Shown: piece by piece, positions 4,385 to 30,430 of the stretch
How positions within the stretch are numbered: the stretch's first letter is position 1
Layout of the letters: each line of letters opens with the position of its first letter
Assembly: GCA_000387965.1 (NCBI GenBank)
Contig: APJZ01000003.1
Span: 30,001-62,000, forward strand
Source: Candidatus Nanobsidianus stetteri
GTDB taxonomy: Archaea; Nanobdellota; Nanobdellia; Nanobdellales; Nanobdellaceae
Direction of reading: 5' to 3'
Length of the DNA stretch: 32,000 bases
The notes under the pieces: model-generated
Databases searched by the model: none
What the model saw: the letters and a program-made list of their open reading frames with translations, nothing else
Told to the model about the DNA's origin: nothing
Program-made: the position numbers and the translations under genes

Positions 4385-4420
4385 ATAAGATAAATAATTC
4401 TTTAAACTATATTAAATTAT

Positions 4421-4503
4421 GGACCCGTGCCCGAGTGGACAAAGGGGGTCGGTTCAGGTCCGATTGGAGAGATCCTTCCGGGGTTCGAATCCCCGCGGGT
4501 CCA
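4421..4503 (+). tRNA. tRNA-Leu(CAG)
   Basis: GGACCCGTGCCCGAGTGGACAAAGGGGGTCGGTTCAGGTCCGATTGGAGAGATCCTTCCGGGGTTCGAATCCCCGCGGGTCCA is a class II tRNA with a long variable arm. Anticodon loop UUCAGGU gives CAG. Confidence 0.9.
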
Positions 4504-4537
4504 TTAATATTCAATAACTAAACTATAAAAAATATAA

Positions 4538-5234: not shown

Positions 5235-5235
5235 G

Positions 5236-5319
5236 TGCGGCGGAGGGGATTTGAACCCCTGGCGGATCTTATCCAATCGGACCTCAACCGACCCCCTTTG
5301 GCCTCTCGGGCACCGCCGC
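5236..5319 (-). tRNA. tRNA-Leu(GAG)
   Basis: Reverse complement GCGGCGGTGCCCGAGAGGCCAAAGGGGGTCGGTTGAGGTCCGATTGGATAAGATCCGCCAGGGGTTCAAATCCCCTCCGCCGCA is a class II cloverleaf. Anticodon loop UUGAGGU gives GAG. Confidence 0.9.
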
Positions 5320-6015: not shown

Positions 6016-7440
6016 GTGATTTATATATATAATACATTAACAAAGAAAAAAGAAATATTTGAGCCTATAGAATATCCCTTTGTAAAAATATACCATTGTG
6101 GAATAACACCATATGATACATCACATATAGGTCATTTAAGGTCAGAAATTTCTTTAGATATTATAAGAAGAATATTCAGATATTTTGGATATATAGATAT
6201 AGCAATTAGCAATTTTACAGATATAGATGATAAAATAATAAAGAGGGCGAGAGAGTTAAATTTATTAAATAATTGGCAAAAAATACCTGAAGAATATATA
6301 AAATACCATTTAGAACAAATAAAAAGATTAAATAATTTACCATTTTATATAAATCCAAGAGTTACAACACATATTAATGATATTGTAGATTTTATAAAAG
6401 ATTTAATAAATAAAGGATATGCATACAAAGGAAAATATAGTATATATTATGATATAGATAAATATCCATATTATGGACAGTTGTCTGGAACAAAAAAAGA
6501 ACAATGGGAACAAGAAACAGAATTCTTAGAAGATAAAAAACATCCATATGATTTTGCATTATGGAAATTTAAAAAAGAAGATGAACCATATTGGAATACA
6601 GAAATTGGAGATGGAAGACCTGGTTGGCATATTGAATGTTCTACAATGTCATCAAAATATTTAGGACCACAATTTGATATACACTCTGGAGGTCAGGATT
6701 TAATATTTCCACATCATGAAAATGAAATTGCTCAATCGGAGGCTAGATTTAATACACATCCTTGGGTAAAATATTGGTTACATTTTGGATTTATAAAAAT
6801 TAAAGGAGAAAAAATGAGTAAAAGTTTGGGAAATATAATACCTGCAAAAGAATTTTTAGATAAATATGGAGAAGATATAACAAGATTTTATATTGGATCT
6901 TATCATTATAGAGAACCAATTGATATAAATGAAGAAAGCATAAATCAAGCAAAAGAAAATTATAGATATATAAGTTCAACAATCAAAACAATTGTAAATG
7001 AAATAAATAGTTTGGATAGAACATTTTATTTAGATGATAATAAAATAAAAATATGGAAAGAATTATTAAATTATGAAAAAGAGTTTATAAATAGTATAAA
7101 GGATGATTTTAATACAAGAGAAGCTACAAGAATATTATTAGAAGCAACAAATTATATAAATAAAAATGTTATTGGATCTGAAACATTTACATTATATATT
7201 ACTTCATATAATTTCTATAATATTGCTTCAAGAATTTATGGATTATGGGAAGATATATTTTATGGAAAAGAAAGTAGAGAAAATTTAACAAATATTTTAT
7301 TAAATATAATAATAGATATTAGAAATGAATTGAGAAAGAATAAAAATTATGAATTATCCGATAAAATAAGGGAAGAACTCAGAAAAATTGGTATAGATTT
7401 ATTAGATCAAGGAAATAAAACAATATATAGATTTATATAA
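6016..7440 (+). CDS. cysS: Cysteinyl-tRNA synthetase
   Basis: 474 aa. IYNTLTKKKEIFEP N-terminus, HIGH motif (TSHIGHLRS), WHIECS zinc-site region and KMSKS motif (GEKMSKSLGN). GTG start at 6016; the nearby ATG at 6000 is in a different frame and hits a stop. Confidence 0.92.
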   Translation: MIYIYNTLTKKKEIFEPIEYPFVKIYHCGITPYDTSHIGHLRSEISLDIIRRIFRYFGYIDIAISNFTDIDDKIIKRARELNLLNNWQKIPEEYIKYHLEQIKRLNNLPFYINPRVTTHINDIVDFIKDLINKGYAYKGKYSIYYDIDKYPYYGQLSGTKKEQWEQETEFLEDKKHPYDFALWKFKKEDEPYWNTEIGDGRPGWHIECSTMSSKYLGPQFDIHSGGQDLIFPHHENEIAQSEARFNTHPWVKYWLHFGFIKIKGEKMSKSLGNIIPAKEFLDKYGEDITRFYIGSYHYREPIDINEESINQAKENYRYISSTIKTIVNEINSLDRTFYLDDNKIKIWKELLNYEKEFINSIKDDFNTREATRILLEATNYINKNVIGSETFTLYITSYNFYNIASRIYGLWEDIFYGKESRENLTNILLNIIIDIRNELRKNKNYELSDKIREELRKIGIDLLDQGNKTIYRFI

Positions 7441-7449
7441 AAATTATTA

Positions 7450-7464
7450 TTTTTTAACTTTTTT
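7450..7464 (+). terminator. Two T6 runs between cysS and the aIF2-gamma gene
   Basis: TTTTTTAACTTTTTT begins 10 nt after the cysS stop, giving candidate oligo-T terminators. Confidence 0.3.
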
Positions 7465-7479
7465 ATTAAAAATAAGTGA

Positions 7480-8679
7480 ATGGATGATATAATATATCCA
7501 GATCTATCAATAATAATATTGGGACATGTTGATCATGGAAAAACAACATTAGCAAAATCATTAACTGGTGAATGGTTGTCAAAACATTCTGAAGAAATAA
7601 AAAGAGGATTAACAATAAAGTTAGGATATGCAGATTTTACAATATATAAATGTGAAGAACACGGATATTTTACAGAAAAAATATGTCCAATATGTAATAA
7701 AGAAAATAAACCAATTAGAAAAATATCTATTGTAGATGCACCTGGTCATGAGAGTTTATTAATGGTAATGTTAACTGGTGCTGCAATTGTTGATGCTGCT
7801 ATATTAGTTATTGCTGCAAATGAACCTGTCCCACAACCACAAACATTAGAACATTTAGTAGCATTCAAATATTTAGGAAATAAACCATTAATAATTGTAC
7901 AAAATAAAATTGATCTAGTAACAAGAGAAGAGGCAATGAAAAATTATAAAGAAATATTAAATTTACTAGATAAGTTAAATATTGATAAAAATAAGGTAAA
8001 AATTATCCCAATATCTGCAATAAATAATATAAATATAAATTATTTATTAGAAGAATTGGTTAATTTGCCAAAACCAGAAAAAGATGAAAGTTCTGATCCT
8101 ATATTTTTAATATCAAGATCTTTTGACGTAAATAAACCCGGTACAGATATAGAAAAATTGGTTGGAGGAGTTTTGGGAGGAAGTTTACTGAAAGGTAAAT
8201 TAAAATTAAATGATGAAATAGAAATAAGACCGGGATTATTTATTAATAATAAGTGGATTCCTATAAAAACAAGGATAATTTCATTAAAACAAGGTAATAG
8301 TGATGTAGAAGAAATATTACCAAGGGGAACTGCAGGAATTGGAACAACTTTAGATCCTTCTGTTACAAAAGATGATACATTAGCAGGTCAAGTTGCTGGA
8401 TATACAAATAAATTGCCTCCACAATATGATGAAATAAAGGTAAAATATGAAGTAATAAAAGAACTATTTAATGAAAATGAGAAAATTCAAAAGGGAGAAA
8501 CAATAATTGTAGGATTATATAATATAATTTCTGATGGGGTTGTAAAAAATATAGAAAAAGGAAATATAATTACTATAAAATTAAATAAACCAGTTTTAGG
8601 ATATAAAGATGATAAAGTTATAATATTAAGAAATATTAACAAAAGATGGAAAATTTTTGCAATTGGTAAACTATTATGA
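7480..8679 (+). CDS. eif2g: Translation initiation factor aIF2 gamma subunit
   Basis: 399 aa. GHVDHGKTTL, DAPGHE and NKID GTPase motifs, plus the zinc-knuckle insert (CEEHGYFTEKICPIC). Confidence 0.92.
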   Translation: MDDIIYPDLSIIILGHVDHGKTTLAKSLTGEWLSKHSEEIKRGLTIKLGYADFTIYKCEEHGYFTEKICPICNKENKPIRKISIVDAPGHESLLMVMLTGAAIVDAAILVIAANEPVPQPQTLEHLVAFKYLGNKPLIIVQNKIDLVTREEAMKNYKEILNLLDKLNIDKNKVKIIPISAINNININYLLEELVNLPKPEKDESSDPIFLISRSFDVNKPGTDIEKLVGGVLGGSLLKGKLKLNDEIEIRPGLFINNKWIPIKTRIISLKQGNSDVEEILPRGTAGIGTTLDPSVTKDDTLAGQVAGYTNKLPPQYDEIKVKYEVIKELFNENEKIQKGETIIVGLYNIISDGVVKNIEKGNIITIKLNKPVLGYKDDKVIILRNINKRWKIFAIGKLL

Positions 8680-9083
8680 AATATAAAATATTAATTGATA
8701 CAAACATATTTTTTATTCCATTTTATGAAAATTTTGATGTAATAAATGAATTAAAAGACTTCTTAATGAAAAATAATATTGAATATGAAGGTTTTTATAC
8801 ATTAAGAAAAAATATTATTGAAATTGAAAATAAGATAAATAGTTCAAAATCTGAAAAATGGAAAAAGATATATAATTTAGTATTAGAATATATAAAAAAG
8901 AGTAATATAAATATTATAGAGACAAAAGAAAATTATGAGAAAACTGATAGACTTATAATAAAAACCGCATTATCTGATAAATTCATTGTATGTACACTAG
9001 ATAAAAATTTAAGAATGATATTAAAGAAATTACATATACCAGTAATTTTTTATTCAAATAAAAGATTACATATAATATGGTAA
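8676..9083 (+). CDS. PIN-domain protein (Fcf1/Utp24-like, COG1412-type)
   Basis: 135 aa. ILIDTNIFF start and ..TDRLIIKTAL..FIVCTLDKNLR.. fit the PIN pattern. ATGA overlap with the aIF2-gamma stop. As I recall, this gene pairing is common in archaea. Confidence 0.65.
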   Translation: MKYKILIDTNIFFIPFYENFDVINELKDFLMKNNIEYEGFYTLRKNIIEIENKINSSKSEKWKKIYNLVLEYIKKSNINIIETKENYEKTDRLIIKTALSDKFIVCTLDKNLRMILKKLHIPVIFYSNKRLHIIW

Positions 9084-9925
9084 CAAATGCCGGAGCAGAA
9101 TTTTATGCTGCCAAAGAAAAATATGAAAATGCTAAAACTCCTGAAGAAAAATTAAAATATTTATATGAAATGTTAAAAACTGCCCCAAAACATAAAGGAT
9201 CTGAACATTTAATTGCATGGATAAATAAAAAAATATCTGAATATGAAAAGATAATTGAGGAAGGTAAATATAAAAAAGGAGGGAGTGGTATAAAATTAAT
9301 AGAAAAATCTGGTGATATTTTAATAAGTATATTGGGAATAGAAAATTCTGGAAAAAGTTATTTTTTAAGGAAATTTACAAATGCAAATGTTGAAGTAAGT
9401 GAAATACCTTTTTCTACAATAAATCCAGCAATTGGTACAATATTTTATAATTGTGTATATTATCAATTTGTTGAAATCCCATCTACATTCGAAAGAAAGT
9501 TTAGATCAATTTTATCATTATCTGATTATTATATATTAATATTAGATGAAAAAAGAGATATAAAAGAACAATTGGAAAGAATAAATAAATTTTCCGAAGG
9601 GATAATTGAATTTAGTACAATTCCAAATAATAAATATAAAATAATATATAATAAATTTGATGATTTTAAAGATGTAAATTTACAAGAAATATTAGAAAAT
9701 ATAATTAAAGATTTAGATTTAATAAGGATAAAACCGATAGATTCAGATCATTGTGTAATATTAAATAAAGAATCTACTATAAAAGATTTTATTGAAAAAA
9801 TAAATAAAAAATGGATAGATAAATTTAGATATGCAAAGATAATTAGAGAAAATAAAATTATAAGAGCTGGACTAAATTATAAATTAGAAGATAAAGATAT
9901 TATTGAATTAAAATTAAAAATATAA
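9077..9925 (+). CDS. DRG/Rbg-like GTPase with C-terminal TGS domain (G3 motif degenerate)
   Basis: 282 aa. DRG-type helical N-terminus (..KTAPKHKGSEHLIAWINKKI..), G1 GIENSGKS, FST in the G2 position, NKFD G4 and a C-terminal TGS-like IRIKP..IIRAGLNYKLEDKDIIELKL. The expected DxPG G3 reads EIPS. Confidence 0.6.
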   Translation: MVTNAGAEFYAAKEKYENAKTPEEKLKYLYEMLKTAPKHKGSEHLIAWINKKISEYEKIIEEGKYKKGGSGIKLIEKSGDILISILGIENSGKSYFLRKFTNANVEVSEIPFSTINPAIGTIFYNCVYYQFVEIPSTFERKFRSILSLSDYYILILDEKRDIKEQLERINKFSEGIIEFSTIPNNKYKIIYNKFDDFKDVNLQEILENIIKDLDLIRIKPIDSDHCVILNKESTIKDFIEKINKKWIDKFRYAKIIRENKIIRAGLNYKLEDKDIIELKLKI

Positions 9926-10186
9926 TTATTTCTTCTTTTCAAGCTTTTCCTTTAATTCTACTATATCTTTTCTAGTATATTCTATTAATATTGCAATTAT
10001 AGATAACCATAATACTCCCAACCAGGTAAATAAAGATGCTATAACTATAGCAGCAGAACTTTGTAATGCGAGTGGTAATTCTATGCTCCTAAATAATAAA
10101 AGATATCCTAATATCATATTAATAAAAAATCCTACCAGCAATATTATTTCCAACAAATTTGGTGCTTTGTAATCAAAGCTAACCAT
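9926..10186 (-). CDS. Small hypothetical membrane protein
   Basis: 86 aa with predicted hydrophobic helices and a charged C-terminal tail (KDIVELKEKLEKKK). It exactly fills the gap between neighbours. Confidence 0.45.
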   Translation of the reverse strand: MVSFDYKAPNLLEIILLVGFFINMILGYLLLFRSIELPLALQSSAAIVIASLFTWLGVLWLSIIAILIEYTRKDIVELKEKLEKKK

Positions 10187-10222
10187 TATTAATTTTTAAA
10201 TTAAATACTTATATATATTTCT

Positions 10223-10696
10223 ATGAAAAGTTTAGATAAAAAATCAAGAAAAAATTTGATTGAGATATTAAAAAACAATTATAAAATAGAATGTGAAAAA
10301 TTAAAAAATGAAAACATTTTTTTGGATGAAGAAAATAATATTTACATATATAATAATATTCCAATAGCATTTATAAAAGATAATAAAATATATCCAACAA
10401 TATTTTTGATAAACGAATGTGAAACAGATATGAATTATATTAAAGTAAATATTGGAGCAAAAGAAAAAATATTAAATGGTGCAGATGTATTTAGACCTGG
10501 AATAATTGAATTTTCAGATTTCAAAAAAGATGAAATAATATTAATAATATCTGAAGATAATAAATTATTGGCAATTGGAAGAGCATTATATGATAGCAAT
10601 GATGCTATAAAAATGGAGAAGGGGAAAATAATAGAAAATATACATTATTATGGAGATAAAATAACAAAATATTATTTAAATAAAATTAAAAATTGA
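10223..10696 (+). CDS. PUA-domain RNA-binding protein (MCT-1/Tma20-like)
   Basis: 157 aa. KVNIGAKEKILNGADVFRPGIIEF..DEIILIISEDNKLLAIGRALYDSNDA is the PUA signature. Confidence 0.7.
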   Translation: MKSLDKKSRKNLIEILKNNYKIECEKLKNENIFLDEENNIYIYNNIPIAFIKDNKIYPTIFLINECETDMNYIKVNIGAKEKILNGADVFRPGIIEFSDFKKDEIILIISEDNKLLAIGRALYDSNDAIKMEKGKIIENIHYYGDKITKYYLNKIKN

Positions 10697-11821
10697 TTTC
10701 TGCTTCAATAAATTGCTATATTTTTTTAATTTATATACAGAAACATTATATTTATTCATAAATTTATTGTTTAAATATGATATTAGTTCATTATAATTAT
10801 CAAATTTTTCTACTAAATTATTTAGCATATACTTCGTTCCTTCCCTAACGACCCAAACACCCAAAGGAACTTTATATTCTCTTGTTACAAATCTAAATAC
10901 AACCAAATTTCCAATCATCTTATAATTTCTCATAAATTCTGCAAAAGATAATTTTAGAGCACTATAACCCCCAGATTCATCATCTCTACCAATTATACTA
11001 TATTTAGAGTTTAAATTATATACAGAACCTGGTATTAATGTTTCTATTAATTCACAATTTCCATTACCTGGAAAAAATACTCCATAAAAATCATTTCCAT
11101 ATAAAGAATAATAGAATAAATAATATTTATCATTAATTTTAGAATAATCCTTTATTTCTTCCTTTATTCTTTTCTCTAAAATTTCATGAACTGCAGTTAT
11201 TGCCCATTTACTTGGAACCAATTTTCTATTTATCTTATATCCAAAAAATCCCATTGAAAACAATCTTGATAAATAATAATCAGACATTCCAGATTTATAT
11301 AAGTAATATATTGAATCTTCCGCTTTCATTTCTTCTATTTTATATATTTCTTTTGGTATTTTTGGATTTTCATTTATTTTTATTTTATCTATTATTCCAG
11401 AATATCCATATAAACCGATTATCTTAGAAATTCTCATATTTTCACTTATTTTATTAAAATATATTTCCAAATTTATTGATTTAATTGATAACATAGAATC
11501 TAAAACTTCATTATATAATTTATCATTTTTTCTTGGTAAATTTGCATCTACAACTTTCTTTGCATTTATTAAACTTATTCTACTCTTTATAATTTCTTCA
11601 ACATCTATATTATTCTTTGCCCAATATATTGGATTATCATATAATTCTATATTTTCATCATAAGATGTCAATATACCTAAAGATAATTTTGGATAATTGA
11701 TTGAACTAATTAAATTTGATGGGGGAGTATAACCATTTATATCCTTTTTTAATATTATGGATTTTCCATATAATTTCTTGTATTTTTCTGCAAGTTTTTT
11801 TGCATTTATAACATCTATCAT
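10676..11821 (-). CDS. nreA: NreA-like protein (DUF650/DUF651 archaeal DNA-repair-associated family)
   Basis: 381 aa. GYTPPSNLISSINYPKLSLGIL.. and C-terminal ..KVPLGVWVVREGTKYML match my memory of the Nre family pattern. 21-nt convergent overlap with the PUA gene. Confidence 0.55.
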   Translation of the reverse strand: MIDVINAKKLAEKYKKLYGKSIILKKDINGYTPPSNLISSINYPKLSLGILTSYDENIELYDNPIYWAKNNIDVEEIIKSRISLINAKKVVDANLPRKNDKLYNEVLDSMLSIKSINLEIYFNKISENMRISKIIGLYGYSGIIDKIKINENPKIPKEIYKIEEMKAEDSIYYLYKSGMSDYYLSRLFSMGFFGYKINRKLVPSKWAITAVHEILEKRIKEEIKDYSKINDKYYLFYYSLYGNDFYGVFFPGNGNCELIETLIPGSVYNLNSKYSIIGRDDESGGYSALKLSFAEFMRNYKMIGNLVVFRFVTREYKVPLGVWVVREGTKYMLNNLVEKFDNYNELISYLNNKFMNKYNVSVYKLKKYSNLLKQKSIFNFI

Positions 11822-11855: not shown

Positions 11856-12533
11856 ATGGACATAATAAATATACCAACAAAATATAAATTAAAAGAAATC
11901 AAAAATTTGGATGAATTGAAAAAATATTTACCAAAGAAATTTGCTCTAGTATCTTTAACACAATATTCTGAATATGCTAAAAAAATATATGAAATATTAA
12001 AGAATGATTATGAAATAATGTTAAAAGAAGGATTATATGGGATAAATGTTTTAGGATGTTACTCAGAACCTGCAAATATAAATGATATAGATACAGTATT
12101 ATTAATTGGAAATGGAAAATTTCATGCAGAAAATATTATAAGGAAATTAAAGAAAAGAGTAATTGTCTATGACCCTATGTATGGAGAAATAAATGTTTAT
12201 GAACCGGATTATAATTTTGACAAAATTATAGAATTTTTATTAAATAAAATAAAAAATTCAAAAAATATTGGAATAATATTATCTATAAAACCTGGACAAT
12301 ATTATTATTTGGAAACATTAAAAGTTAAAGATAAATTGGAAAAATCCGGAAAAAATGTATACTTATTTATCGGAGATACAATTGATACTTTACAATTATT
12401 GAATTTTCCATACATAGATTTCTGGATTTTTTCTGCATGTCCAAGATTGATTGATGATGTAATAGATAATAATATAAATGGTATAACTATTGATATTCTA
12501 ATAAAAAATTTAGATAAAGTAGTTAATATTTAA
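11856..12533 (+). CDS. dph2: Diphthamide synthase Dph2-like protein (short form)
   Basis: About 225 aa from the ATG at 11856 (the track starts at TTG 11853). VLGCYSEP.., LLIGNGKFHAENI.. and FSACPRLIDD resemble Dph2 motifs. As I recall, typical archaeal Dph2 is about 330-340 aa. Confidence 0.5.
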   Translation: MDIINIPTKYKLKEIKNLDELKKYLPKKFALVSLTQYSEYAKKIYEILKNDYEIMLKEGLYGINVLGCYSEPANINDIDTVLLIGNGKFHAENIIRKLKKRVIVYDPMYGEINVYEPDYNFDKIIEFLLNKIKNSKNIGIILSIKPGQYYYLETLKVKDKLEKSGKNVYLFIGDTIDTLQLLNFPYIDFWIFSACPRLIDDVIDNNINGITIDILIKNLDKVVNI

Positions 12534-14519
12534 TATTCCCTGTACGAATATATACAATCCTATTGAAGATAATGTAGAGAATATAAAGAATACTATTATG
12601 TTCATTATATAATATTTGTATAAATAATAATAGAATCCCAATTTATCTCCGCTATTTTCTATACTATTAATTGCATATATAATTACAAAGGCTATTGCCA
12701 AATTAAATATTCCGATTATAATTATCATTGTAGCTGGGGAGGTAATAGAATTTAAGTTAAATATATTTAATATAATATTTGGCAATGAATTTATATATTG
12801 AGAAAACCCTGAATTAGATGAAGCCAAATTTGATATTTGACTAAATTGAAAAGATAATTTATATAATATTTCTATAATCATCACACTAACTGCGCCAACT
12901 ATTCCTAAAATAATTGGAGCTAAAATTCTTAATAAAGATTTCAATTGAGATAAATCTTCTGCTACAAGATCTTTAATTCTCTCTTTTACTTTTGATATTA
13001 ATAAAAAATATCTTGCAATTATACCAGTTATAACAGCAGCTTCAGAAGGAGATTGACCACTGGCTTCATATAATAATTCCATTGTAGCTCTCAATTGCGA
13101 TGATGGTATTTTAGATAGAGCTCCATATCTCATATCAAATATCGAATCATAAAATGATAAACCTACCCTTAAATTTTGATATACTTTTGATATAAAATCT
13201 CCAATTGGACTACCTTTATATTTTGGGTAAACATATATCATCGCCTTTTCGAGTGGATAACCTTCATTTAATGCAGAACTTAAAGATAATAAAAATGATG
13301 GCAAATCTGTTCCTATTCTTTCTAAACTTTTATATAAATCTTTATAATGCGAATAGTAAATGAAAGCAATTAATGAAACAGATAAACCCGTTAAAAACAC
13401 TAAAAATTCTGATAATAATATTCCTGAAATATCGAATTTATATAAATATTGATATATTACAAAAAAGATTATGAAAAATAGTAATATACCTACTGAAAGT
13501 CCACTGGCTACTGATATTAATTTATTTGTTAAATCTTCCCTCTTTAAATAATAAAATAGATATATATCATCATTTGAAAAAACATTAATAATTTTTGAGG
13601 AAATCGAATAATTAATTGCATAAAATGCTAAAAATGGTATTAAAATATCAAATAATATAAATAAAACGAGAGGACTAAATATATTTTCTAAGAATATTGA
13701 TGCAAGAGGAAATACTGTTAATAACATAACTGGTAAAGTTATACCCAACATAGATACAAGATTTATTGTAGATCTTATTTCCCTAGAAAATTCATATAGT
13801 TCATTTACCAATTCCTCCAAAGCTTCTTCTATGGATTTATCTATCTGGAAATTCCTTCTATCCTTATCTGGATCATATAAGGCACTTAATATAAGCATAA
13901 TACCAGTATAAAAGAATTTTGCATTTTTTTCCCAAGATCTTGAATATTCTACTAAAGCTTCTGATGCAGAAACATATTTTCTATTATATATATCTCTTAA
14001 CAATCTTAACAAATCTAATTTTAATGGTAAGTTAATATTTTTTGCGGCAAATAGTATAGCTTGTTCTACATTTGGATTTTGTCTTAATTTAATAGCTAAC
14101 AATAATAATAGACTTATTAATTGAGATTTCTTCTTGTTATATAAATTATTATATAAAATAACATAATAATAATCGATCAATATGTATGATAATATACCAA
14201 AGGAAATAAATAGTAAGAAATATAAAGTAGATATTATTATTGATGGAATTATTCCTATAAAGATGAATAATATTAGAAAAAATATTGCTGCCGAATCTAT
14301 TTGATCAATGCTTACATCTAAAAATAGTTCTTCATTTATTTTTTCAAAATTTTTTCTTTTTTTATTATTTGATTTTATCTTTATTATATTTCCAAATGTT
14401 TTAACAATCTTTTCATAATATTTTAATTTATTACCAAAATAGAAATATTTATATAACTTTAATTTACCTTCTAAATTCTGATTATCTAATCTATTTAACT
14501 CAATTTCTGATATATCCAT
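12510..14519 (-). CDS. FlaJ/TadC-like type IV pilus/archaellum platform membrane protein
   Basis: 669 aa, polytopic, with two cytoplasmic T2SS-F-like domains (..LRLLRDIYNRKYVSASEALVEYSRSWE.. and ..LSSALNEGYPLEKAMIYVYPKYKGSPIGDFISKVYQNLRVGLSFYDSI..). 25-nt overlap with the upstream ATPase gene. Confidence 0.75.
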   Translation of the reverse strand: MDISEIELNRLDNQNLEGKLKLYKYFYFGNKLKYYEKIVKTFGNIIKIKSNNKKRKNFEKINEELFLDVSIDQIDSAAIFFLILFIFIGIIPSIIISTLYFLLFISFGILSYILIDYYYVILYNNLYNKKKSQLISLLLLLAIKLRQNPNVEQAILFAAKNINLPLKLDLLRLLRDIYNRKYVSASEALVEYSRSWEKNAKFFYTGIMLILSALYDPDKDRRNFQIDKSIEEALEELVNELYEFSREIRSTINLVSMLGITLPVMLLTVFPLASIFLENIFSPLVLFILFDILIPFLAFYAINYSISSKIINVFSNDDIYLFYYLKREDLTNKLISVASGLSVGILLFFIIFFVIYQYLYKFDISGILLSEFLVFLTGLSVSLIAFIYYSHYKDLYKSLERIGTDLPSFLLSLSSALNEGYPLEKAMIYVYPKYKGSPIGDFISKVYQNLRVGLSFYDSIFDMRYGALSKIPSSQLRATMELLYEASGQSPSEAAVITGIIARYFLLISKVKERIKDLVAEDLSQLKSLLRILAPIILGIVGAVSVMIIEILYKLSFQFSQISNLASSNSGFSQYINSLPNIILNIFNLNSITSPATMIIIIGIFNLAIAFVIIYAINSIENSGDKLGFYYYLYKYYIMNIIVFFIFSTLSSIGLYIFVQGILNINYFI

Positions 14520-16738
14520 TTCTTCATATTATCTAATATATAATCTTTTACAATTTCATTATATTCTTTAATACTTTTATCCACATATTGATAAAACACT
14601 TCATTGTACGCAGAAACAAAATCTGCTTCTAAAATATCTTTCCTATTCTTTTCTCTTGCTATATCTACTAATATCTTTTTTGATAAACCTATTGTTTCTA
14701 TCATATTCCATATTCTTTCCCAAGATTTTGACAAATATCTTATCCTAGATGCAACAGCTTTTAATATATCAGAATCTCCATTTATTAATTCTAATGTTGG
14801 TTCTAAATTATCCTTTTCCGCATCATAAACCATTAAATCAACAAAACCTTTTTCTTTTAATGGATCCTGATCCCATAATTTTCTTACTTCAGTTATCCTT
14901 AATACTCTTCTATATCTTTTTAATCCAGAAGGTTCTTTAATTGGATTTACAATTACTATTATATCTGTAGCTTTGAATGATGTTTTAGGAACTCCAAGAT
15001 CATTTACAACTCTATCATATACTCCATAGGGGCTTTCTGCATGCAAAGTACCCATTACCGCATTCGCTACGGCACCAACTCTCATAGCTTCATATAATGT
15101 TAAAGCCTCTTTTGATCTAACTTCTCCAACAATTATAGCACTATCTCCCATTCTTAAAGATACTCTTAAACCTTCCTCAGCAGATAATTCTGCAGATTTT
15201 AATGAAAATGGACTCCTAACTTTCATAGGAACTATATTATATCCTATTGATCTAAAAAATTCCGCAGGTATTTCTAGAGTATCTTCTACAGTTATCATCC
15301 TAACTTTTTTAGGTATTTCTAACATTAAAGCTGTTAATAATGATGTTTTACCACTTCCTCTTGTACCAGCAATTAAAATTGTCCTTCCATTTGCAACTAA
15401 AAAAGATAATAAACCTGCAGCCTGATAATTTAGCATTTTATTATCTATAAATAAAGGCAAAGTCCATGGTTTACTTCTATGTCTTCTAATTATATATGAT
15501 AATCCGAAGGGAGATAATGGTGGTGATAATGCTGCAACTCTTAATAATATATTATTTCCAATTACTAAATCTGTATCTAAAACTGGATTTGCTTCATCAA
15601 ATGGTCTTCCAGATATTAATCTTAATTTTGTAGCCCAAGATTCTACCTCCCTTCTAGTTGGAGTTACATTTGTAACACACATTTCATATTTAGAATGCTG
15701 TAAATATATTGGAGTTATACCTGCTGGCGGGTTTATAAATAGATCTTCTAAATTTTCATCTAAAACTATTTTCTCTATTATTCCAAAACCAATCGTATAT
15801 CTAATAATTATACTTTTAATTAATTCCAACCTATTTTTATCTATATTTATATTATATATAGACATTAATTTCGCTAGTATATTATTTAGTATATTATTAT
15901 ATATTTCTCTCAATCTTTCTACATCTAGATAATCTTCCTTTCTAGGTTCATATTCTTGTAAAATTTCTATTGCCTTATGGGATAAAAATGTTTCTTCAGA
16001 GAATATTTTATATTCTTCTGGAAATATATAATATCTAAAAACTGTTTCTTCAGGATTCTTTAATATAAAAACTTCCGTATTTTTATCCAATCTATAAGAA
16101 TCTACAATATTATAACTTTCTGAAATTTTATTTATATATTTTGTATCTATAAATTTTGGTTTTATATCTCCCAATAATATTCTTCTATATATTTCTCTAT
16201 TCCCAATTTGATATCCGATTAGAAATGGTTTAATATACTTATATAAAGGCAATGATTCAAATTTTATTAAAAAATTATCTATCAATGATATTAAATTTGA
16301 TATTTGATTTTCTAAATCTTTATTATTTTTTAATATTGACATTAATTTTCTTTTCATTCTTCTTATAAATATATATGTACCAATTGGATCTCTCAAATAC
16401 CCTTTATCCAAATAATCTATTATAGTTTTTATTTCGGAATATAATGGATTGCCAGTTAATAAATATTTATAATATTCCGATATATTATTTTTAATAGAGA
16501 GATATACATCAAGAAAACTATTTAATACTTTTATACTATCCTCATAATATTCTATATTTTCATCTTGCTCGATTACTATAGTATTTACAAATGGATCTAT
16601 AGATAATATATTTAATATATATTCCATTATATTTGGATCATCTTCAATTGTAGCAATATTATTATAATTTTTAGCATTTACATATAATACTCTTTCTTTT
16701 CCATTCATTTTAATTTCATATTGTAAATTATTTAGCAT
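14495..16738 (-). CDS. FlaI/VirB11-family type IV secretion-type ATPase, unusually long
   Basis: 747 aa. Walker A ILIAGTRGSGKTSLL at about residue 455-468, followed by RMITVEDTLEIP, IIVGEVRSKEA and MGTLHAE. This is the secretion-ATPase core, with roughly 190-aa N-terminal and about 100-aa C-terminal extra sequence relative to my memory of ~510-550-aa FlaI proteins. Confidence 0.85.
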   Translation of the reverse strand: MLNNLQYEIKMNGKERVLYVNAKNYNNIATIEDDPNIMEYILNILSIDPFVNTIVIEQDENIEYYEDSIKVLNSFLDVYLSIKNNISEYYKYLLTGNPLYSEIKTIIDYLDKGYLRDPIGTYIFIRRMKRKLMSILKNNKDLENQISNLISLIDNFLIKFESLPLYKYIKPFLIGYQIGNREIYRRILLGDIKPKFIDTKYINKISESYNIVDSYRLDKNTEVFILKNPEETVFRYYIFPEEYKIFSEETFLSHKAIEILQEYEPRKEDYLDVERLREIYNNILNNILAKLMSIYNINIDKNRLELIKSIIIRYTIGFGIIEKIVLDENLEDLFINPPAGITPIYLQHSKYEMCVTNVTPTRREVESWATKLRLISGRPFDEANPVLDTDLVIGNNILLRVAALSPPLSPFGLSYIIRRHRSKPWTLPLFIDNKMLNYQAAGLLSFLVANGRTILIAGTRGSGKTSLLTALMLEIPKKVRMITVEDTLEIPAEFFRSIGYNIVPMKVRSPFSLKSAELSAEEGLRVSLRMGDSAIIVGEVRSKEALTLYEAMRVGAVANAVMGTLHAESPYGVYDRVVNDLGVPKTSFKATDIIVIVNPIKEPSGLKRYRRVLRITEVRKLWDQDPLKEKGFVDLMVYDAEKDNLEPTLELINGDSDILKAVASRIRYLSKSWERIWNMIETIGLSKKILVDIAREKNRKDILEADFVSAYNEVFYQYVDKSIKEYNEIVKDYILDNMKKWIYQKLS

Positions 16739-16776
16739 ATAAAGATTAATATATATTAAAATATAATAGTTTTACT

Positions 16777-17139
16777 ATGAATGATCCAGAGACACTTAGG
16801 AGATTAAAATATTTAGAAGAGAAAATTTCAATGTTCAATAATATACTGCAAACTATAGATGTAACTACCAGAAGTTCTTTAGATGATTTCAAATTAGAGA
16901 TAGAAAACATTAAGAAAGAAATAAATGATATAAAACAAGAAATAAATGATATAGAAATAAAAATAAAGGCAATAATGGATGAATTATCAAATTTTGCTAC
17001 TACAGATCAATTAAAAATTATAAATTCCATTCTAGACTACATAAATCCATTTGATTTTGTTACTAAGAAGGAACTGGATAAATTAGTAAAAGAAAAAATT
17101 ATGGAATATCTCGATAACCTATATAATCAAAAAGGTTAA
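16777..17139 (+). CDS. Hypothetical coiled-coil protein
   Basis: 120 aa with heptad-rich sequence (IENIKKEINDIKQEINDIEIKIKAIMDEL). It is divergent from the FlaI-like gene across a 38-nt spacer. No family recognised. Confidence 0.55.
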   Translation: MNDPETLRRLKYLEEKISMFNNILQTIDVTTRSSLDDFKLEIENIKKEINDIKQEINDIEIKIKAIMDELSNFATTDQLKIINSILDYINPFDFVTKKELDKLVKEKIMEYLDNLYNQKG

Positions 17140-17171
17140 ATTTATAATATTCAATATTTTTATTAAGAATT

Positions 17172-17876
17172 ATGAGAAGTCTACTCGGTCTATTTAGTAA
17201 GAAAGGTAATAAAGATCAGAGTGACCAACAGAATTTAGACAACCTATTTCAGGACTTTAATAGTCCAATACCACAAAATAATGGACCATTCAATCAATTT
17301 CAGCAGAGTAATAATATTAATCCAATAGCAAATAATTACCAGAATTTTTCTTTTGGTCAAACAAATCAGCAAATGCCATTACAGCAAAATATTTCAAGCC
17401 AATTTAATCAGTCATGGAACTTACCTCCACAACCAACCCCAAGTCCAAGTTTAAATCAATTTCAACCACAACAACAAGTTCAAAGTCAACCGGAATTTGG
17501 ACAAAGTAATTTTTCTATAGATGATAGACTTGAACAATATATAAACAATACAATAAATGATATATTAAAAGATAAATTGAATGAAGTACATGATGAATTA
17601 TCACAAATAAAAATATGGAAAGAGAAAGTAGAATATCTTATTAATAAAATGCAAGAACAAATTGATAAATTAGATAATAAAATAACCGAAATAAATAATT
17701 TAGCAACTAAAAAATTGGAAGAGTATGATAAAGGAATGCAAGAAGCAACAACAGAAATACAAGCATTACATAGATTGATAAGAACAATGATACCCGCAAT
17801 ATCTGAATCTACAAAAGAATTAAGAGAAACAGTAGAGGAATTAAAATCTTTAAGAGATTCAATTAGAAAACCTTAA
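17172..17876 (+). CDS. Hypothetical protein: N-terminal LFSKK motif, about 100-aa Q/N/P-rich low-complexity region, C-terminal coiled coil
   Basis: 234 aa. MRSLLGLFSKKGN.. is followed by NQFQQSNNINPIANNYQNFSFGQTNQQMPLQQN...QPQQQVQSQPEF, then a heptad-rich tail of about 110 aa. Uninterrupted ORF in an AT-rich context. Confidence 0.6.
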   Translation: MRSLLGLFSKKGNKDQSDQQNLDNLFQDFNSPIPQNNGPFNQFQQSNNINPIANNYQNFSFGQTNQQMPLQQNISSQFNQSWNLPPQPTPSPSLNQFQPQQQVQSQPEFGQSNFSIDDRLEQYINNTINDILKDKLNEVHDELSQIKIWKEKVEYLINKMQEQIDKLDNKITEINNLATKKLEEYDKGMQEATTEIQALHRLIRTMIPAISESTKELRETVEELKSLRDSIRKP

Positions 17877-17907
17877 ATTTTTTAATCCTTTTTAATAAAT
17901 TTTATTG

Positions 17908-18303
17908 ATGGATAAAAGGGAAACCATAATAGTAGGGATAATACTATTAATATTATTAGCATTAGGATTTATAATTGCTCCATTGTTATATCCAATAAAT
18001 AATAACCAGAACTTAAATCAGAATCAATTATATCAAATATATCAGATTGCACAATACTGTCAAGATCTATGTATATATGCAAAGTATAATTTATCTATAA
18101 GTAACTTAAGTAATACCTGTCTAGTATCAGAAAATTCTATATTATATCAATCTTGGATCTCTTATCCAAATGCATATAATTGGGGATGTGAAGTATCGGA
18201 TAATAATTTGAATTTGTGCAACAATAGTAATTATATAGTATTGGACGATAATTGTTCTATAATTAATATATATTATCAAAATAGACAATTAAATATAACA
18301 TGA
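17908..18303 (+). CDS. Hypothetical N-terminally anchored, Cys-rich, sequon-rich surface protein
   Basis: About 131 aa from the ATG at 17908 (the track starts at TTG 17905). One N-terminal hydrophobic helix (IIVGIILLILLALGFIIAPLL), 6 Cys and 5 N-x-S/T sequons in the remaining ~100 aa. The stop overlaps the tatD start. Confidence 0.55.
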   Translation: MDKRETIIVGIILLILLALGFIIAPLLYPINNNQNLNQNQLYQIYQIAQYCQDLCIYAKYNLSISNLSNTCLVSENSILYQSWISYPNAYNWGCEVSDNNLNLCNNSNYIVLDDNCSIINIYYQNRQLNIT

Positions 18304-25089: not shown

Positions 25090-25838
25090 ATTAATATATC
25101 TATAAGACTAGTTCTTAAGCCTGGTAGAAATCCTAAATAAAATAACATTAAGTATATTACATTTCTTAGATCATCCTTTAAATAATATTTTGTATAAAGG
25201 GCAATAAATAATGTTAAAAATAGTTTTAATCCATAAAATAATAATGGATTATTATATTGAAAAATAAGGATATTTAATAACTGATGTTCAGATTGTAAAT
25301 TAAAATAATATACTGAGATAATTGAAAAAATAGTTTCATAGATTTCCCCAAATATTGATAAATAGAATAATTTTTCTGTATATGATAAATAAATTAAAAT
25401 AGAAAATAATAAAATGAATATTAAAGATGGTAATAAATTTATTGGCCTTCCAAAAATAAAAAATGGAATTTCCAATATTAAAATTACCAATAATATATAT
25501 AGGTAATATTTTCTGTATTTATATAAAAATAGAACTGGTAAAAAAGATATTAAGATCCATAGTTCTAATAGAGGTGTAAATAATAAATATGTTTTTATTG
25601 TATAACCAAGATCAATATTTACTCTTGGAATAATAAATATTGTAGTTAAAATAATTAGATCTAATAAAAAATATCTATCAATAATTACTTTTTTATTTTT
25701 TACAAAGAGATAATAAAAAAGAATAAAACCTACAACAAATAATAATCCATATAAAAATGTATTATATATATTATATTGATATTGATATCCTATTACTGGA
25801 TATATAAAATATTGATAAAAAATTTGATATAAATTCAT
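25086..25838 (-). CDS. Hypothetical polytopic membrane protein (possibly DUF63-like)
   Basis: 250 aa and very hydrophobic with multiple predicted TM helices. Its start ATG shares one nucleotide with the upstream stop (TAATG). The family assignment is only a vague recollection. Confidence 0.5.
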   Translation of the reverse strand: MNLYQIFYQYFIYPVIGYQYQYNIYNTFLYGLLFVVGFILFYYLFVKNKKVIIDRYFLLDLIILTTIFIIPRVNIDLGYTIKTYLLFTPLLELWILISFLPVLFLYKYRKYYLYILLVILILEIPFFIFGRPINLLPSLIFILLFSILIYLSYTEKLFYLSIFGEIYETIFSIISVYYFNLQSEHQLLNILIFQYNNPLLFYGLKLFLTLFIALYTKYYLKDDLRNVIYLMLFYLGFLPGLRTSLIDILI

Positions 25839-26230
25839 TAACGCCTATAATATTGAAAATATTGGAGTAAATTGTTTAATAGAGCAATTATATTATCTAA
25901 CTTCGTTGCAATTGTATCTAATTTTGTATTTAGCATTTGTATTAAATTATAATCAAAATTTGAATATTGATTATTATATCCATAATTTTGTGGAAAATTT
26001 GGTAAATATGCTTGAGGATTTAATTGTCCTGGAAATTGATTTTGTTGAAGTGTATTTTGACTTTGAATTGGTGGTGGAGGAGGTGGTAATAATGGCTCAT
26101 TTGGATATGGACCTGGAGGATAATTTCCTGGTCCTTCTGGTGGGTAATTCATAAAATCTCCCTGTTGGTTTATACCATAATCTTCATTATCCCTTTTTCC
26201 AAAAAGATTCTTAATAAAATCCAATGCCAT
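25838..26230 (-). CDS. Hypothetical protein: N-terminal LFGKR motif, P/Q/N-rich low-complexity region, short C-terminal helical segment
   Basis: 130 aa. MALDFIKNLFGKRDNED.., then ..NYPPEGPGNYPPGPYPNEPLLPPPPPPIQSQNTLQQNQF..NYGYNNQYSNF.., then LIQMLNTKLDTIATKLDNIIALLNNLL. Same three-part layout as the 17172-17876 product. Confidence 0.55.
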   Translation of the reverse strand: MALDFIKNLFGKRDNEDYGINQQGDFMNYPPEGPGNYPPGPYPNEPLLPPPPPPIQSQNTLQQNQFPGQLNPQAYLPNFPQNYGYNNQYSNFDYNLIQMLNTKLDTIATKLDNIIALLNNLLQYFQYYRR

Positions 26231-28780: not shown

Positions 28781-30430
28781 ATGTATGAACTTATTAATGA
28801 TATTATAAAAAAGAGCCTTAGAAAGATTACCATAATATTTAGTATAATAATTGCATTAATAATTATAATAGGAAAATATTTACCGGTATTAAAAATATAC
28901 TATCCAATTTTATATTTGTCAGCAGTTGTTTTTTCATTGGAGGTTATATTTCTAGAATATTATAAAACAAAAAAATCATTGGATAAATCCTTACTATATT
29001 ATATAGCATATTTATATTCTCTCTCATTTTCTACAAGTAATATTAAAAGATTATTAGAAATTGCAATTGAAGAAAAAACAGAATTTAAGGATATAAATTA
29101 TTATATGTCAAAAATTCTTTTTTTAACAAATAAATATAATTATACAATCCCAGAAGCTATAAGATATGTATTACCATATATTCCAAATAGTAATTTTAAA
29201 AGTTTTTTAGAGAGATTTGCAACTTCAATTGATATTGGCGAAGAAATATCAGAATTTTTATATAAAGAATATGAAACACAATTAGCAATATATGAAGCAA
29301 ATTATGAAAAAGGTTTAGAAAATATAAGATTATTAGATGAATTTATAATATCTTTATTATCATCTTTAGGATTTGCATTTTCTTTAATATTGTTTATACC
29401 ATTCTTAGTAAGTGCAAATATAATATTTTTACTAGCAGATTTTTTTATAATATTCATTGTAATTAATTTACTCATATATTATGTATCAAAATATTATATC
29501 CCTGATGATGGATTATGGTCTCATTCAAAAGAAAAACCAAAAGAATATATAACAATAAGATATTTATTTTACATTTTATCATTCTTATCTTATATATTAT
29601 TTTTAGCATTATTTTTAGTATTAAAATTACAATTATTAGAGGCCTTTGCAATAGCAGTTACACCCTTAGCATATGTAAGCTATAGGATGATATTATTAGA
29701 GAGAGCATTAAAAATAAAGGAAAATCATTTTCCAGCATTCTTTAGTAGTATAATAGAATATTCAGAAATATTTGGAAGTAATCAAACAAAAATATTGGAT
29801 AATGTTATTATACATGATTTTGGTTTATTAAATGAAGATATTAACAGATTAAGGAAAAGGATAAACATAACAAAAAATTATTCCGAATCTTGGAGATATT
29901 TTATAGTTGAATTGGGTAGTTCTATTGCAGAAAAAATAATAAAGGTATTTGAAAAAGTTTTATCATATAATGGAGATACAAAAAAAGCAGGAGATATGTT
30001 ATATAATATATTAATAAAGATAATTGAGCTTAGATCTAGAAAATCTCAATTTATATCAAATTTAAGGGGTATTATATATGGAACATATATAGCATTTATA
30101 GCAATTTTATTCATAATTGCTCAAATATTATATTTATTAAACCAGATGTTTCAAGGTGTATCTACAGCACTTGGTTCTGCAGTAGCTCAGATAGGTATAA
30201 ATATATATACATTTTCAATACCTTTATATATATTGCAGGATTATATATTTGTAATATCTATTATTGAAGCTTTTATTTTAGCAGGAGCATTGAAAAATAT
30301 AGATGGAGGATCTAAACTTGGAATGTTCCTGGATGCGACAGTTATGATATGGTTAAGTGCATTATTGAATATTTTGGTATATTATTTATTTACATATGTA
30401 TTTTCGGGTCTATCTTTAGTAAAGCTATAA
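28781..30430 (+). CDS. Second FlaJ/TadC-like platform membrane protein (orphan paralog)
   Basis: 549 aa, polytopic, with two T2SS-F-like cytoplasmic regions (..IPEAIRYVLPYIPNSNFKSFLERFATSIDIGEEISEFLYKEYETQ.. and ..FPAFFSSIIEYSEIFGSNQTKILDNV..). No adjacent secretion ATPase. Confidence 0.65.
   Translation: MYELINDIIKKSLRKITIIFSIIIALIIIIGKYLPVLKIYYPILYLSAVVFSLEVIFLEYYKTKKSLDKSLLYYIAYLYSLSFSTSNIKRLLEIAIEEKTEFKDINYYMSKILFLTNKYNYTIPEAIRYVLPYIPNSNFKSFLERFATSIDIGEEISEFLYKEYETQLAIYEANYEKGLENIRLLDEFIISLLSSLGFAFSLILFIPFLVSANIIFLLADFFIIFIVINLLIYYVSKYYIPDDGLWSHSKEKPKEYITIRYLFYILSFLSYILFLALFLVLKLQLLEAFAIAVTPLAYVSYRMILLERALKIKENHFPAFFSSIIEYSEIFGSNQTKILDNVIIHDFGLLNEDINRLRKRINITKNYSESWRYFIVELGSSIAEKIIKVFEKVLSYNGDTKKAGDMLYNILIKIIELRSRKSQFISNLRGIIYGTYIAFIAILFIIAQILYLLNQMFQGVSTALGSAVAQIGINIYTFSIPLYILQDYIFVISIIEAFILAGALKNIDGGSKLGMFLDATVMIWLSALLNILVYYLFTYVFSGLSLVKL

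Follow-up and report, generated by a model that had tools for sequence, protein, structure and literature searches.

Does a type IV filament motor that is encoded beside neither archaellin nor pilin still build a filament, and do the small genes facing it belong to the same system? This question is raised by a locus of the nanoarchaeon Candidatus Nanobsidianus stetteri, which we analysed within a stretch of 32,000 nucleotides (hereafter the window; contig APJZ01000003.1, positions 30,001 to 62,000). Here a secretion ATPase and a membrane platform are transcribed away from three small genes, which are listed below in window coordinates with the lengths of their open reading frames (ORFs) in residues (aa).

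12510–14519, minus strand: platform Nst1_442, 669-aa ORF; arCOG01814, TadC type, polytopic
14495–16738, minus strand: ATPase Nst1_443, 747-aa ORF; arCOG01818, type IV filament secretion ATPase
16739–16776: A+T-rich divergent spacer of 38 nt, from the ATPase to cc120
16777–17139, plus strand: cc120 (Nst1_444), 120-aa ORF, coiled coil
17172–17876, plus strand: qn234 (Nst1_445), 234-aa ORF, Q/N-rich linker and long helix
17905–18303, plus strand: cys131 (Nst1_446), 131 aa from the ATG at 17908 or 132 aa from the TTG at 17905

The five ORFs, the 25-nt overlap between those of the ATPase and the platform, and the 38-nt spacer are all present as initially annotated, and the stop of cys131 overlaps the start of tatD (18300) by 4 nt. 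Comparison of related loci shows that the motor forms a conserved gene module with cc120 and qn234. We read the locus as a non-archaellum type IV pilus-like assembly motor of Nanoarchaeota, which would stand beside the known subclade 4F, be served by a coiled-coil scaffold or regulator and draw on pilins encoded elsewhere, and we put the probability of this reading at about 0.6. The initial annotation had suggested that the locus could be a novel surface-appendage or host-attachment/transfer apparatus; the ATPase/platform pair itself was already catalogued beside subclade 4F, with its pilins unidentified (Makarova et al. 2016). What seems to be new is the linkage of cc120 and qn234 to the ATPase, and in the literature searched we found no description of their partnership with the motor or of the triplet of membrane proteins that relatives add.

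Two small genes stay with the motor

The sample comprised 80 species-level loci with full-length relatives of the ATPase, in which ORFs were called and clustered and hidden Markov models (HMMs) were built. Upstream counts refer to the 61 loci with at least 1.8 kb of upstream sequence and the platform count to the 67 loci with enough sequence downstream. A homologue of cc120 lies divergently beside the ATPase in 51 of the 61 loci, one of qn234 in 49 and both in 48, always on the strand opposite to the ATPase and in the order qn234, cc120, ATPase. In the relatives, 39–370 nt usually separate cc120 from the start of the ATPase, and the platform is encoded directly downstream of the ATPase in 60/67 loci. 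The complete block of cc120, qn234, ATPase and platform is kept at ATPase identities of 40–45%. Among the neighbours in the window, tatD, TFE, GatE, Dph2 and Nre are conserved only within the Nanopusillaceae. While these other neighbours turn over, the block is retained in at least three different settings (Nanopusillaceae, Woese-type and Pace-type). Sampling from the accessory side led to the same arrangement, as all five contexts fetched for remote members of the qn234 or cc120 families have a T2SSE ATPase of 746–757 aa divergently adjacent.

It could be argued that the unit ends with the ATPase and the platform, and that the small genes on the plus strand have nothing to do with it. They might, for example, encode generic coiled coils of the cytoskeleton or of division and have stayed adjacent through inertia or a shared promoter region. 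A DPANN-specific alpha-helical family, NEQ484, which may be that of cc120 or qn234, has been described as 'typically in house-keeping context' (Makarova et al. 2019), and the best matches of the ATPase and of qn234 in Nanoarchaeum equitans have distant gi numbers, an unverified hint that the two genes are not adjacent there. Furthermore, cys131 is conserved only where every neighbour is conserved. However, the adjacency of cc120 and qn234 to the ATPase outlasts a complete turnover of the other neighbours and recurs in every context sampled from the accessory-protein side, and an explanation by mere neighbourhood seems quite improbable to us. The co-occurrence in relatives on which the initial annotation let its proposal depend is thus confirmed for cc120 and qn234 (48/61 loci, five of five contexts) but not for cys131, which occurs in Nanopusillaceae only.

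The ATPase and the platform are not of the archaellum type

Nst1_443 contains a T2SSE domain (PF00437) at residues 329–596 with a Pfam score of 78.2 bits against a gathering threshold of 24.9. Its motifs are intact, namely Walker A (GTRGSGKT, 458), Asp box (ITVEDTLE, 482), Walker B (IIVGEVR, 535) and His box (GTLH, 563), and all four are invariant in a 13-sequence alignment of the family. Matches in the PDB are led by afGspE (2OAP, 8e-31), followed by CpaF (1.5e-25), and include FlaI (4II7). Residues ~194–644 represent a FlaI/GspE2/CpaF-like N-terminal domain together with the ATPase core. Because these residues align with essentially the entire aligned body of both FlaI 4II7 and afGspE 2OAP, the conserved, family-specific N-terminal extension of ~180–190 aa is real. 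The initial view, a pair of the type IV filament type whose ATPase has a large lineage-specific extension at its N-terminus (~190 aa), is borne out. The further claim of about 100 extra C-terminal residues has to be revised. The C-terminal region is ~100 aa long and divergent, but since FlaI and afGspE themselves leave 74–77 C-terminal residues unaligned, its net excess over them is only ~25–30 aa. With either terminal region as query, sequence-profile searches of the PDB produced coiled-coil or chance matches and nothing else.

Full-length homologues of 740–770 aa are present in Nanopusillaceae (57–95% identity), Nanobdella (77%) and Nanoclepta (54%), and very many Woese- and Pacearchaeota encode full-length homologues at 40–45% identity. 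Both terminal regions hold conserved residues across these homologues, and the oversized form of the ATPase is thus shared with relatives and not peculiar to Nst1. One homologue of 917 aa (P0025) carries an intein domain (PF14890).

The ATPase has been assigned to arCOG01818 (Wurch 2016, Suppl. Data 1). Its closest matches outside DPANN are haloarchaeal, with 39.7% identity as compared to at most 32% for others. Alignment by hhalign with the 4F-type ATPase of the Haloterrigena plasmid pHTUR04 (E 1e-56, 36% identity) covers the core only, leaving ~200 N-terminal and ~75 C-terminal residues unaligned. In the tree of Makarova et al. (2016), a pair formed by an Nst1 protein (gi 490715604) and an N. 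equitans protein (gi 41615211) is sister to subclade 4F. The window ATPase is probably gi 490715604, because its best match in the table of Podar (2013) is 41615211 and Nst1 has a single clade-4 ATPase.

The platform protein has about 8–10 transmembrane (TM) segments and two cytoplasmic regions in its TM profile. Its match to the Pfam family T2SSF remains below threshold (19.4 bits, cut-off 25.2), and 10 of 45 members of the platform family match T2SSF, the best at 3.5e-5. A profile search of the PDB with the platform gave only coiled-coil or chance matches. The hhalign comparison with the platform of Haloterrigena pHTUR04, on the other hand, extends nearly end to end (probability 99.8%, E 7e-30, 520 columns), which supports the assignment of Nst1_442 to arCOG01814, TadC (Wurch 2016, Suppl. 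Data 1; Podar 2013, Additional file 2). Being polytopic, encoded adjacent to the ATPase and homologous to an annotated platform, the protein fits the T2SSF/TadC superfamily in spite of the sub-threshold Pfam score. Six Pacearchaeota-type loci (L050, L056, L083, L085, L087 and L089) have the platform inverted with respect to the ATPase, tail to tail, so that not all relatives have ATPase and platform in one operon. The published table (Wurch 2016, Suppl. Data 1) assigns to arCOG01814 a second protein, with nine TM segments and without an adjoining ATPase, as 'uncharacterized conserved membrane protein' (Nps_00520 / Nst1_638); its gene may likewise be TadC-like.

Could the pair nevertheless be the archaellum motor ArlI/ArlJ, with the coiled-coil genes as divergent equivalents of ArlC/D/E or ArlX? 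The Nanobdella orthologue has been named 'flagella-related ATPase FlaI' by NCBI. ArlI (NF058587) is the best NCBIfam match of the ATPase (133.7 bits, 8.5e-39; TadA is second), and cc120 itself gave a single weak match to FlaC_arch (E 0.008). However, the ArlI score is far below the cut-off of 550. The FlaC_arch match does not recur among 51 members of the cc120 family, and cc120 was rejected as a FlaC/D/E homologue. The platform has no match at E<=0.1 to the NCBIfam ArlJ models (NF004703-5). A true ArlJ/FlaJ platform of canonical type (549 aa; NF004704, 9.4e-81) is encoded at 28781–30430 on the plus strand, outside the locus that was initially annotated, and hhalign found no similarity between it and the platform family (probability 0.7%). 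This ArlJ gene has ribosomal-protein genes on one side and an RFC-like gene on the other, without an adjoining ATPase, ArlH or archaellin; therefore, the window contains two platform genes and the archaellum genes of Nst1 are dispersed. A separate FlaD/E-FlaH-FlaI cluster (Nst1_136-139) is located elsewhere in the genome (Podar 2013; Wurch 2016 tables), as are three more FlaI paralogues in the published tables (Nst1_088, 227 and 260). Moreover, the system is present in N. equitans, which has no archaellum. At the locus we found no FlaH, archaellin or prepilin peptidase, in agreement with the initial annotation, nor were ArlH, ArlF/G or archaellins found in the ATPase locus or its flanks. An archaellum motor is thus largely refuted and, in our estimate, exceedingly improbable; Nst1_443 and Nst1_442 are not its parts. 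The initial label 'FlaI/FlaJ-like' is misleading for an ATPase that scores 134 bits of the 550 required for ArlI and for a platform of the TadC type (99.8%) without any ArlJ match.

The small proteins and what relatives add

In the AlphaFold2 (AF2) model of cc120 (predicted local distance difference test score, pLDDT, 82), a long helix spans residues 4–73, a short one 76–89 and a C-terminal one 97–119, the loop between the last two bearing an invariant P..FVT motif. In qn234, residues 1–113 are disordered and are followed by a single helix of 118 residues (115–232; pLDDT of the helix ~98), which carries conserved W-KEK and EYDKG motifs. The N-terminus of qn234 is short and basic ('LGLFSKK'), and many of its relatives start with a basic 'LFGKKK' motif. 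Neither a TM segment nor a signal peptide was found in cc120 or qn234; the two are cytoplasmic partners and not surface proteins, and the initial description of three surface genes does not apply to two of them. The stretch of qn234 that had been called prion-like (residues 15–113, 43% Q+N) is a disordered and variable linker, in place of which relatives have P/Q-rich linkers and a small UBA-like helical domain.

An exhaustive profile search places 1352 clusters (50% identity) in the cc120 family at E<=1e-3 and 861 at E<=1e-10. The matches are full-length, all of 120–230 aa, and the named members belong to Woesearchaeota or Nanoarchaeota. A weak similarity detected by hhalign between residues 7–72 of cc120 and 154–219 of qn234 (probability 85%, E 7e-6) could reflect distant paralogy or coiled-coil bias.

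A 130-aa ORF at 25838–26230 on the minus strand of the window, which ends at the start of a DUF63 membrane-protein gene, resembles qn234 in its architecture, with the N-terminus 'MALDFIKNLFGKRD', a P/Q/N-rich low-complexity region and a short C-terminal helix. No similarity to it was detected with the qn234 HMM. The 'LFGK' N-terminus common to both may be a shared membrane- or partner-binding motif.

The third small protein, cys131, has a single N-terminal TM segment as an anchor and an ectodomain rich in sequons, five being present as compared to ~2.5 expected from composition, with six Cys residues that are invariant in seven orthologues. Its N-terminus is basic and is followed by a hydrophobic helix, and the residue before this helix varies among E, N, A, K and S by orthologue. 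A conserved [KR][GA] motif of a class III signal is not found in the orthologues, and the FlaFind-like scan of cys131 was negative. The gene was found in the seven Nanopusillaceae loci only, where tatD, TFE and GatE are equally conserved and everything else is also syntenic; the linkage of cys131 to the motor therefore has no independent support. The initial grouping of cys131 with the motor is not supported, its linkage being no stronger than that of tatD or TFE, and its membership of the module is uncertain. The protein is probably a lineage-specific surface glycoprotein, which could be a substrate of the motor, a partner of it, or neither. A relationship to a Cys-rich pilin-like family of the Pacearchaeota loci (c30) was rejected (hhalign probability 2%).

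Relatives extend the module in two ways. In 40 of the 61 loci, two to four tandem paralogues of an orphan protein of ~190 aa with five TM segments (5-TM) lie beyond qn234 and are convergent on it. Its members carry a conserved 'LPFLLVFTIVFAILEKTKILG' first helix; the family matches nothing in Pfam or NCBIfam and is missing from both the window and the Nanopusillaceae loci. The outer flanks of these genes differ among Woese- and Pacearchaeota loci. The possibility that these proteins ('c4') are short TadC derivatives was rejected (hhalign probability 0.3% against the platform family). The second addition is seen in a Pacearchaeota-type subgroup (L056, L057, L059, L065 and L066; also L071 and L074), in which pilin-like genes with clear class III signals, e.g. 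'NKKG|MSQEVLVGMIL' and 'KKG|IELSMNVIIIAI', are located downstream of the platform. Two families are among these genes, one of ~275 aa and a Cys-rich one of ~121 aa, and the genes are the only direct link of the motor to pilins. Representative positions are as follows.

L040, 4996–6745, plus strand: 5-TM paralogues (also e.g. L034, 5126–6755, and L057, 5099–6803)
L057, 12535–13362 and 14526–14891: pilin-like genes, downstream of the platform

The genomic setting in the window is otherwise that of housekeeping genes, with Nre, Dph2, TatD, TFE, GatE and RadB on the flanks and a G+C content of ~22% across the whole window. The predicted qn234 and Nst1_445 of Candidatus Nanobsidianus stetteri share 100% identity and the contig is JGI 'OBNano_10003'; by this identity, the source organism is the Obsidian Pool nanoarchaeon Nst1. 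A tRNA-Met (495–571) and a tRNA-Arg (2798–2872) were called by both ARAGORN and Rfam, and two tRNA-Leu (4420–4504, plus strand; 5235–5319, minus strand) were called by ARAGORN and are below the Rfam gathering score.

Function and relation to known systems

How might the module work as a pilus-like motor? The ATPase (arCOG01818), of hexameric type, and the TadC-type platform (arCOG01814) would constitute the motor. The proteins cc120 and qn234 could assemble, with themselves or with each other, into an elongated coiled coil of ~10–17 nm, which would dock on the family-specific N- and C-terminal regions of the ATPase. It has been suggested that accessories specific to a subsystem dock on the extended termini of the ATPases of type IV pili (Sivabalasarma & Albers 2026 preprint). 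The coiled coil might act as a scaffold, positioning element or regulator, analogous to ArlX, ArlC/D/E or arCOG07564 of the haloarchaeal 4F systems, and qn234 might be tethered to the membrane through its basic amphipathic 'LFGKK' N-terminus and the flexible linker. ATP hydrolysis would then drive the platform to build a filament whose pilin-like subunits would be encoded at other places in the genome, and in a host-dependent nanoarchaeon such a filament would most plausibly serve attachment. Filaments of more than one type are seen in Nanobdella, which also has several archaellin-like genes.

In Suppl. Data 1 of Wurch (2016), the orthologues of the ATPase (Nps_02250; 0.18% of spectra, IDP-MS1 rank 61) and of qn234 (Nps_02260; 0.17% of spectra) are detected in the proteome of Nanopusillus acidilobi, a relative in cultivation, and those of the platform, cc120 and cys131 are not detected. 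Among the table rows examined, the archaellum ATPase and two clade-2 ATPases have no proteome values.

Several observations weigh against the reading of the locus as a pilus-like motor with a coiled-coil scaffold. A FlaFind-like scan of the entire 32-kb window found no ORF with a class III signal, in line with the locus without pilin that was initially annotated, no pilins have been identified for the branch of the Nst1 and N. equitans ATPases (Makarova et al. 2016), and prepilin peptidase was reported missing in two nanoarchaea in the same study. Most relatives carry three 5-TM orphans instead of pilins, which could indicate a function other than a filament. In 13 of the 61 loci the cc120-qn234 pair is not found beside the ATPase; the upstream genes there are unrelated housekeeping genes (nitrilase-like, Lgt-like, P-type ATPase) and not alternative accessories. 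Finally, the scaffold or regulator role of cc120 and qn234 is inferred by analogy, because neither has a detectable relative of known function. Pfam and NCBIfam searches with both families gave scattered coiled-coil noise, PDB profile searches gave only coiled-coil or chance matches, and Foldseek of the AF2 models against the PDB gave no match, so that the initial statement that these two proteins lack a recognisable family holds.

Some of these observations raise the main rival possibility, that the motor no longer builds a pilus, and that the ATPase, the platform, the coiled-coil pair and, in most lineages, the three 5-TM proteins form a Nanoarchaeota-specific membrane machine. Such a machine would move other cargo, for instance in secretion, in taking up host material or DNA, or in remodelling the membrane at the contact site. 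Besides the missing pilins, in cis as well as in nanoarchaea at large, and the prepilin peptidase reported missing in two nanoarchaea, this is favoured by the conservation of the polytopic orphan triplet in 40/61 loci and by N. equitans, which keeps the system without an archaellum. Makarova et al. (2016) suggest the same for other pilin-less archaeal systems. Against it stand the pilin-like genes encoded after the platform in one subgroup of relatives, and neither the window nor the Nanopusillaceae loci have the 5-TM triplet. To our knowledge, every characterised member of the ATPase/platform superfamily assembles pilin-type subunits, which also counts against such a machine, and we hold it to be rather unlikely. 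A more specific form, in which the coiled-coil pair would be the stalk or stator of a Nanoarchaeota-wide machine and the membrane proteins a host-exchange conduit (uptake of host material or DNA, export of effectors), is a bolder proposal and the less likely of the two; if true, it would explain the retention of the system even in N. equitans.

A pilus-like motor remains the reading that we prefer. Nanoarchaeota and their Woese- and Pacearchaeota relatives depend on host contact, and the ATPase/platform pair is among the few envelope machines kept group-wide, by published tables even in the 0.49-Mb genome of N. equitans. The linkage described here turns two orphan families of 'hypothetical proteins' (at least 861 clusters for cc120) into candidate partners of this motor, and the routine 'FlaI/FlaJ' annotation of its genes is corrected.

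Among the known systems, the bacterial Tad/Flp pilus (CpaF/TadA with TadB/C) resembles the Nst1 system in its ATPase, for which CpaF ranks second among the PDB matches and TadA second among the NCBIfam matches, and in the TadC-like platform. In contrast to Tad/Flp, the Nst1 platform is a single fused protein, TadZ, a secretin and a Flp pilin are missing, and the system is archaeal, with coiled-coil partners that are not known in Tad systems. The archaellum motor (ArlI/ArlJ/ArlH with ArlX or ArlC/D/E) shares the ATPase and platform superfamilies and has cytoplasmic coiled-coil accessories, which surround or regulate it. It differs in that Nst1_443 is 234 aa longer than FlaI and the pair falls short of the ArlI and ArlJ thresholds, and in that the Nst1 motor locus has no ArlH, ArlF/G or archaellin, the archaellum genes of the genome being elsewhere. 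The archaeal 'system 2' ATPases of type IV filaments (TFF; Sivabalasarma & Albers 2026 preprint) are similar in their extended N- and C-termini and single-gene platform, but belong to another clade, to which Nst1_088, 227 and 260 are assigned and Nst1_443 is not.

Subclade 4F (Makarova, Koonin & Albers 2016), found mainly in Halobacteria and Methanomicrobia, comprises an arCOG01818 ATPase, an arCOG01814 TadC platform, pilins (arCOG02981/10216/04673) and the coiled-coil protein arCOG07564. The sole haloarchaeal locus fetched (L082, Haloterrigena turkmenica pHTUR04, 6077–10944) is plasmid-borne, with a 4F-type ATPase and platform, and is flanked by genes for a DEAD-box helicase and a CDC48-type AAA ATPase. 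In this locus arCOG07564 was not found; instead, there are two pilin-like genes, one upstream and divergent with the class III-like signal 'DRA|IEGLPIRLVIALVV', the other directly before the ATPase. The Nst1 system is unlike 4F in that its ATPase has an N-terminal domain that is not rich in Cys and gave no alignment with its haloarchaeal counterpart, its locus is without 4F pilins or adhesin-like genes, two coiled-coil genes are present and divergently transcribed, and most of its relatives add the three 5-TM orphan proteins. The Nst1 system shares with 4F the same ATPase and platform arCOGs, the order of an ATPase gene followed by a platform gene, an extended N-terminus of the ATPase, and a small cytoplasmic coiled-coil accessory encoded beside the ATPase.

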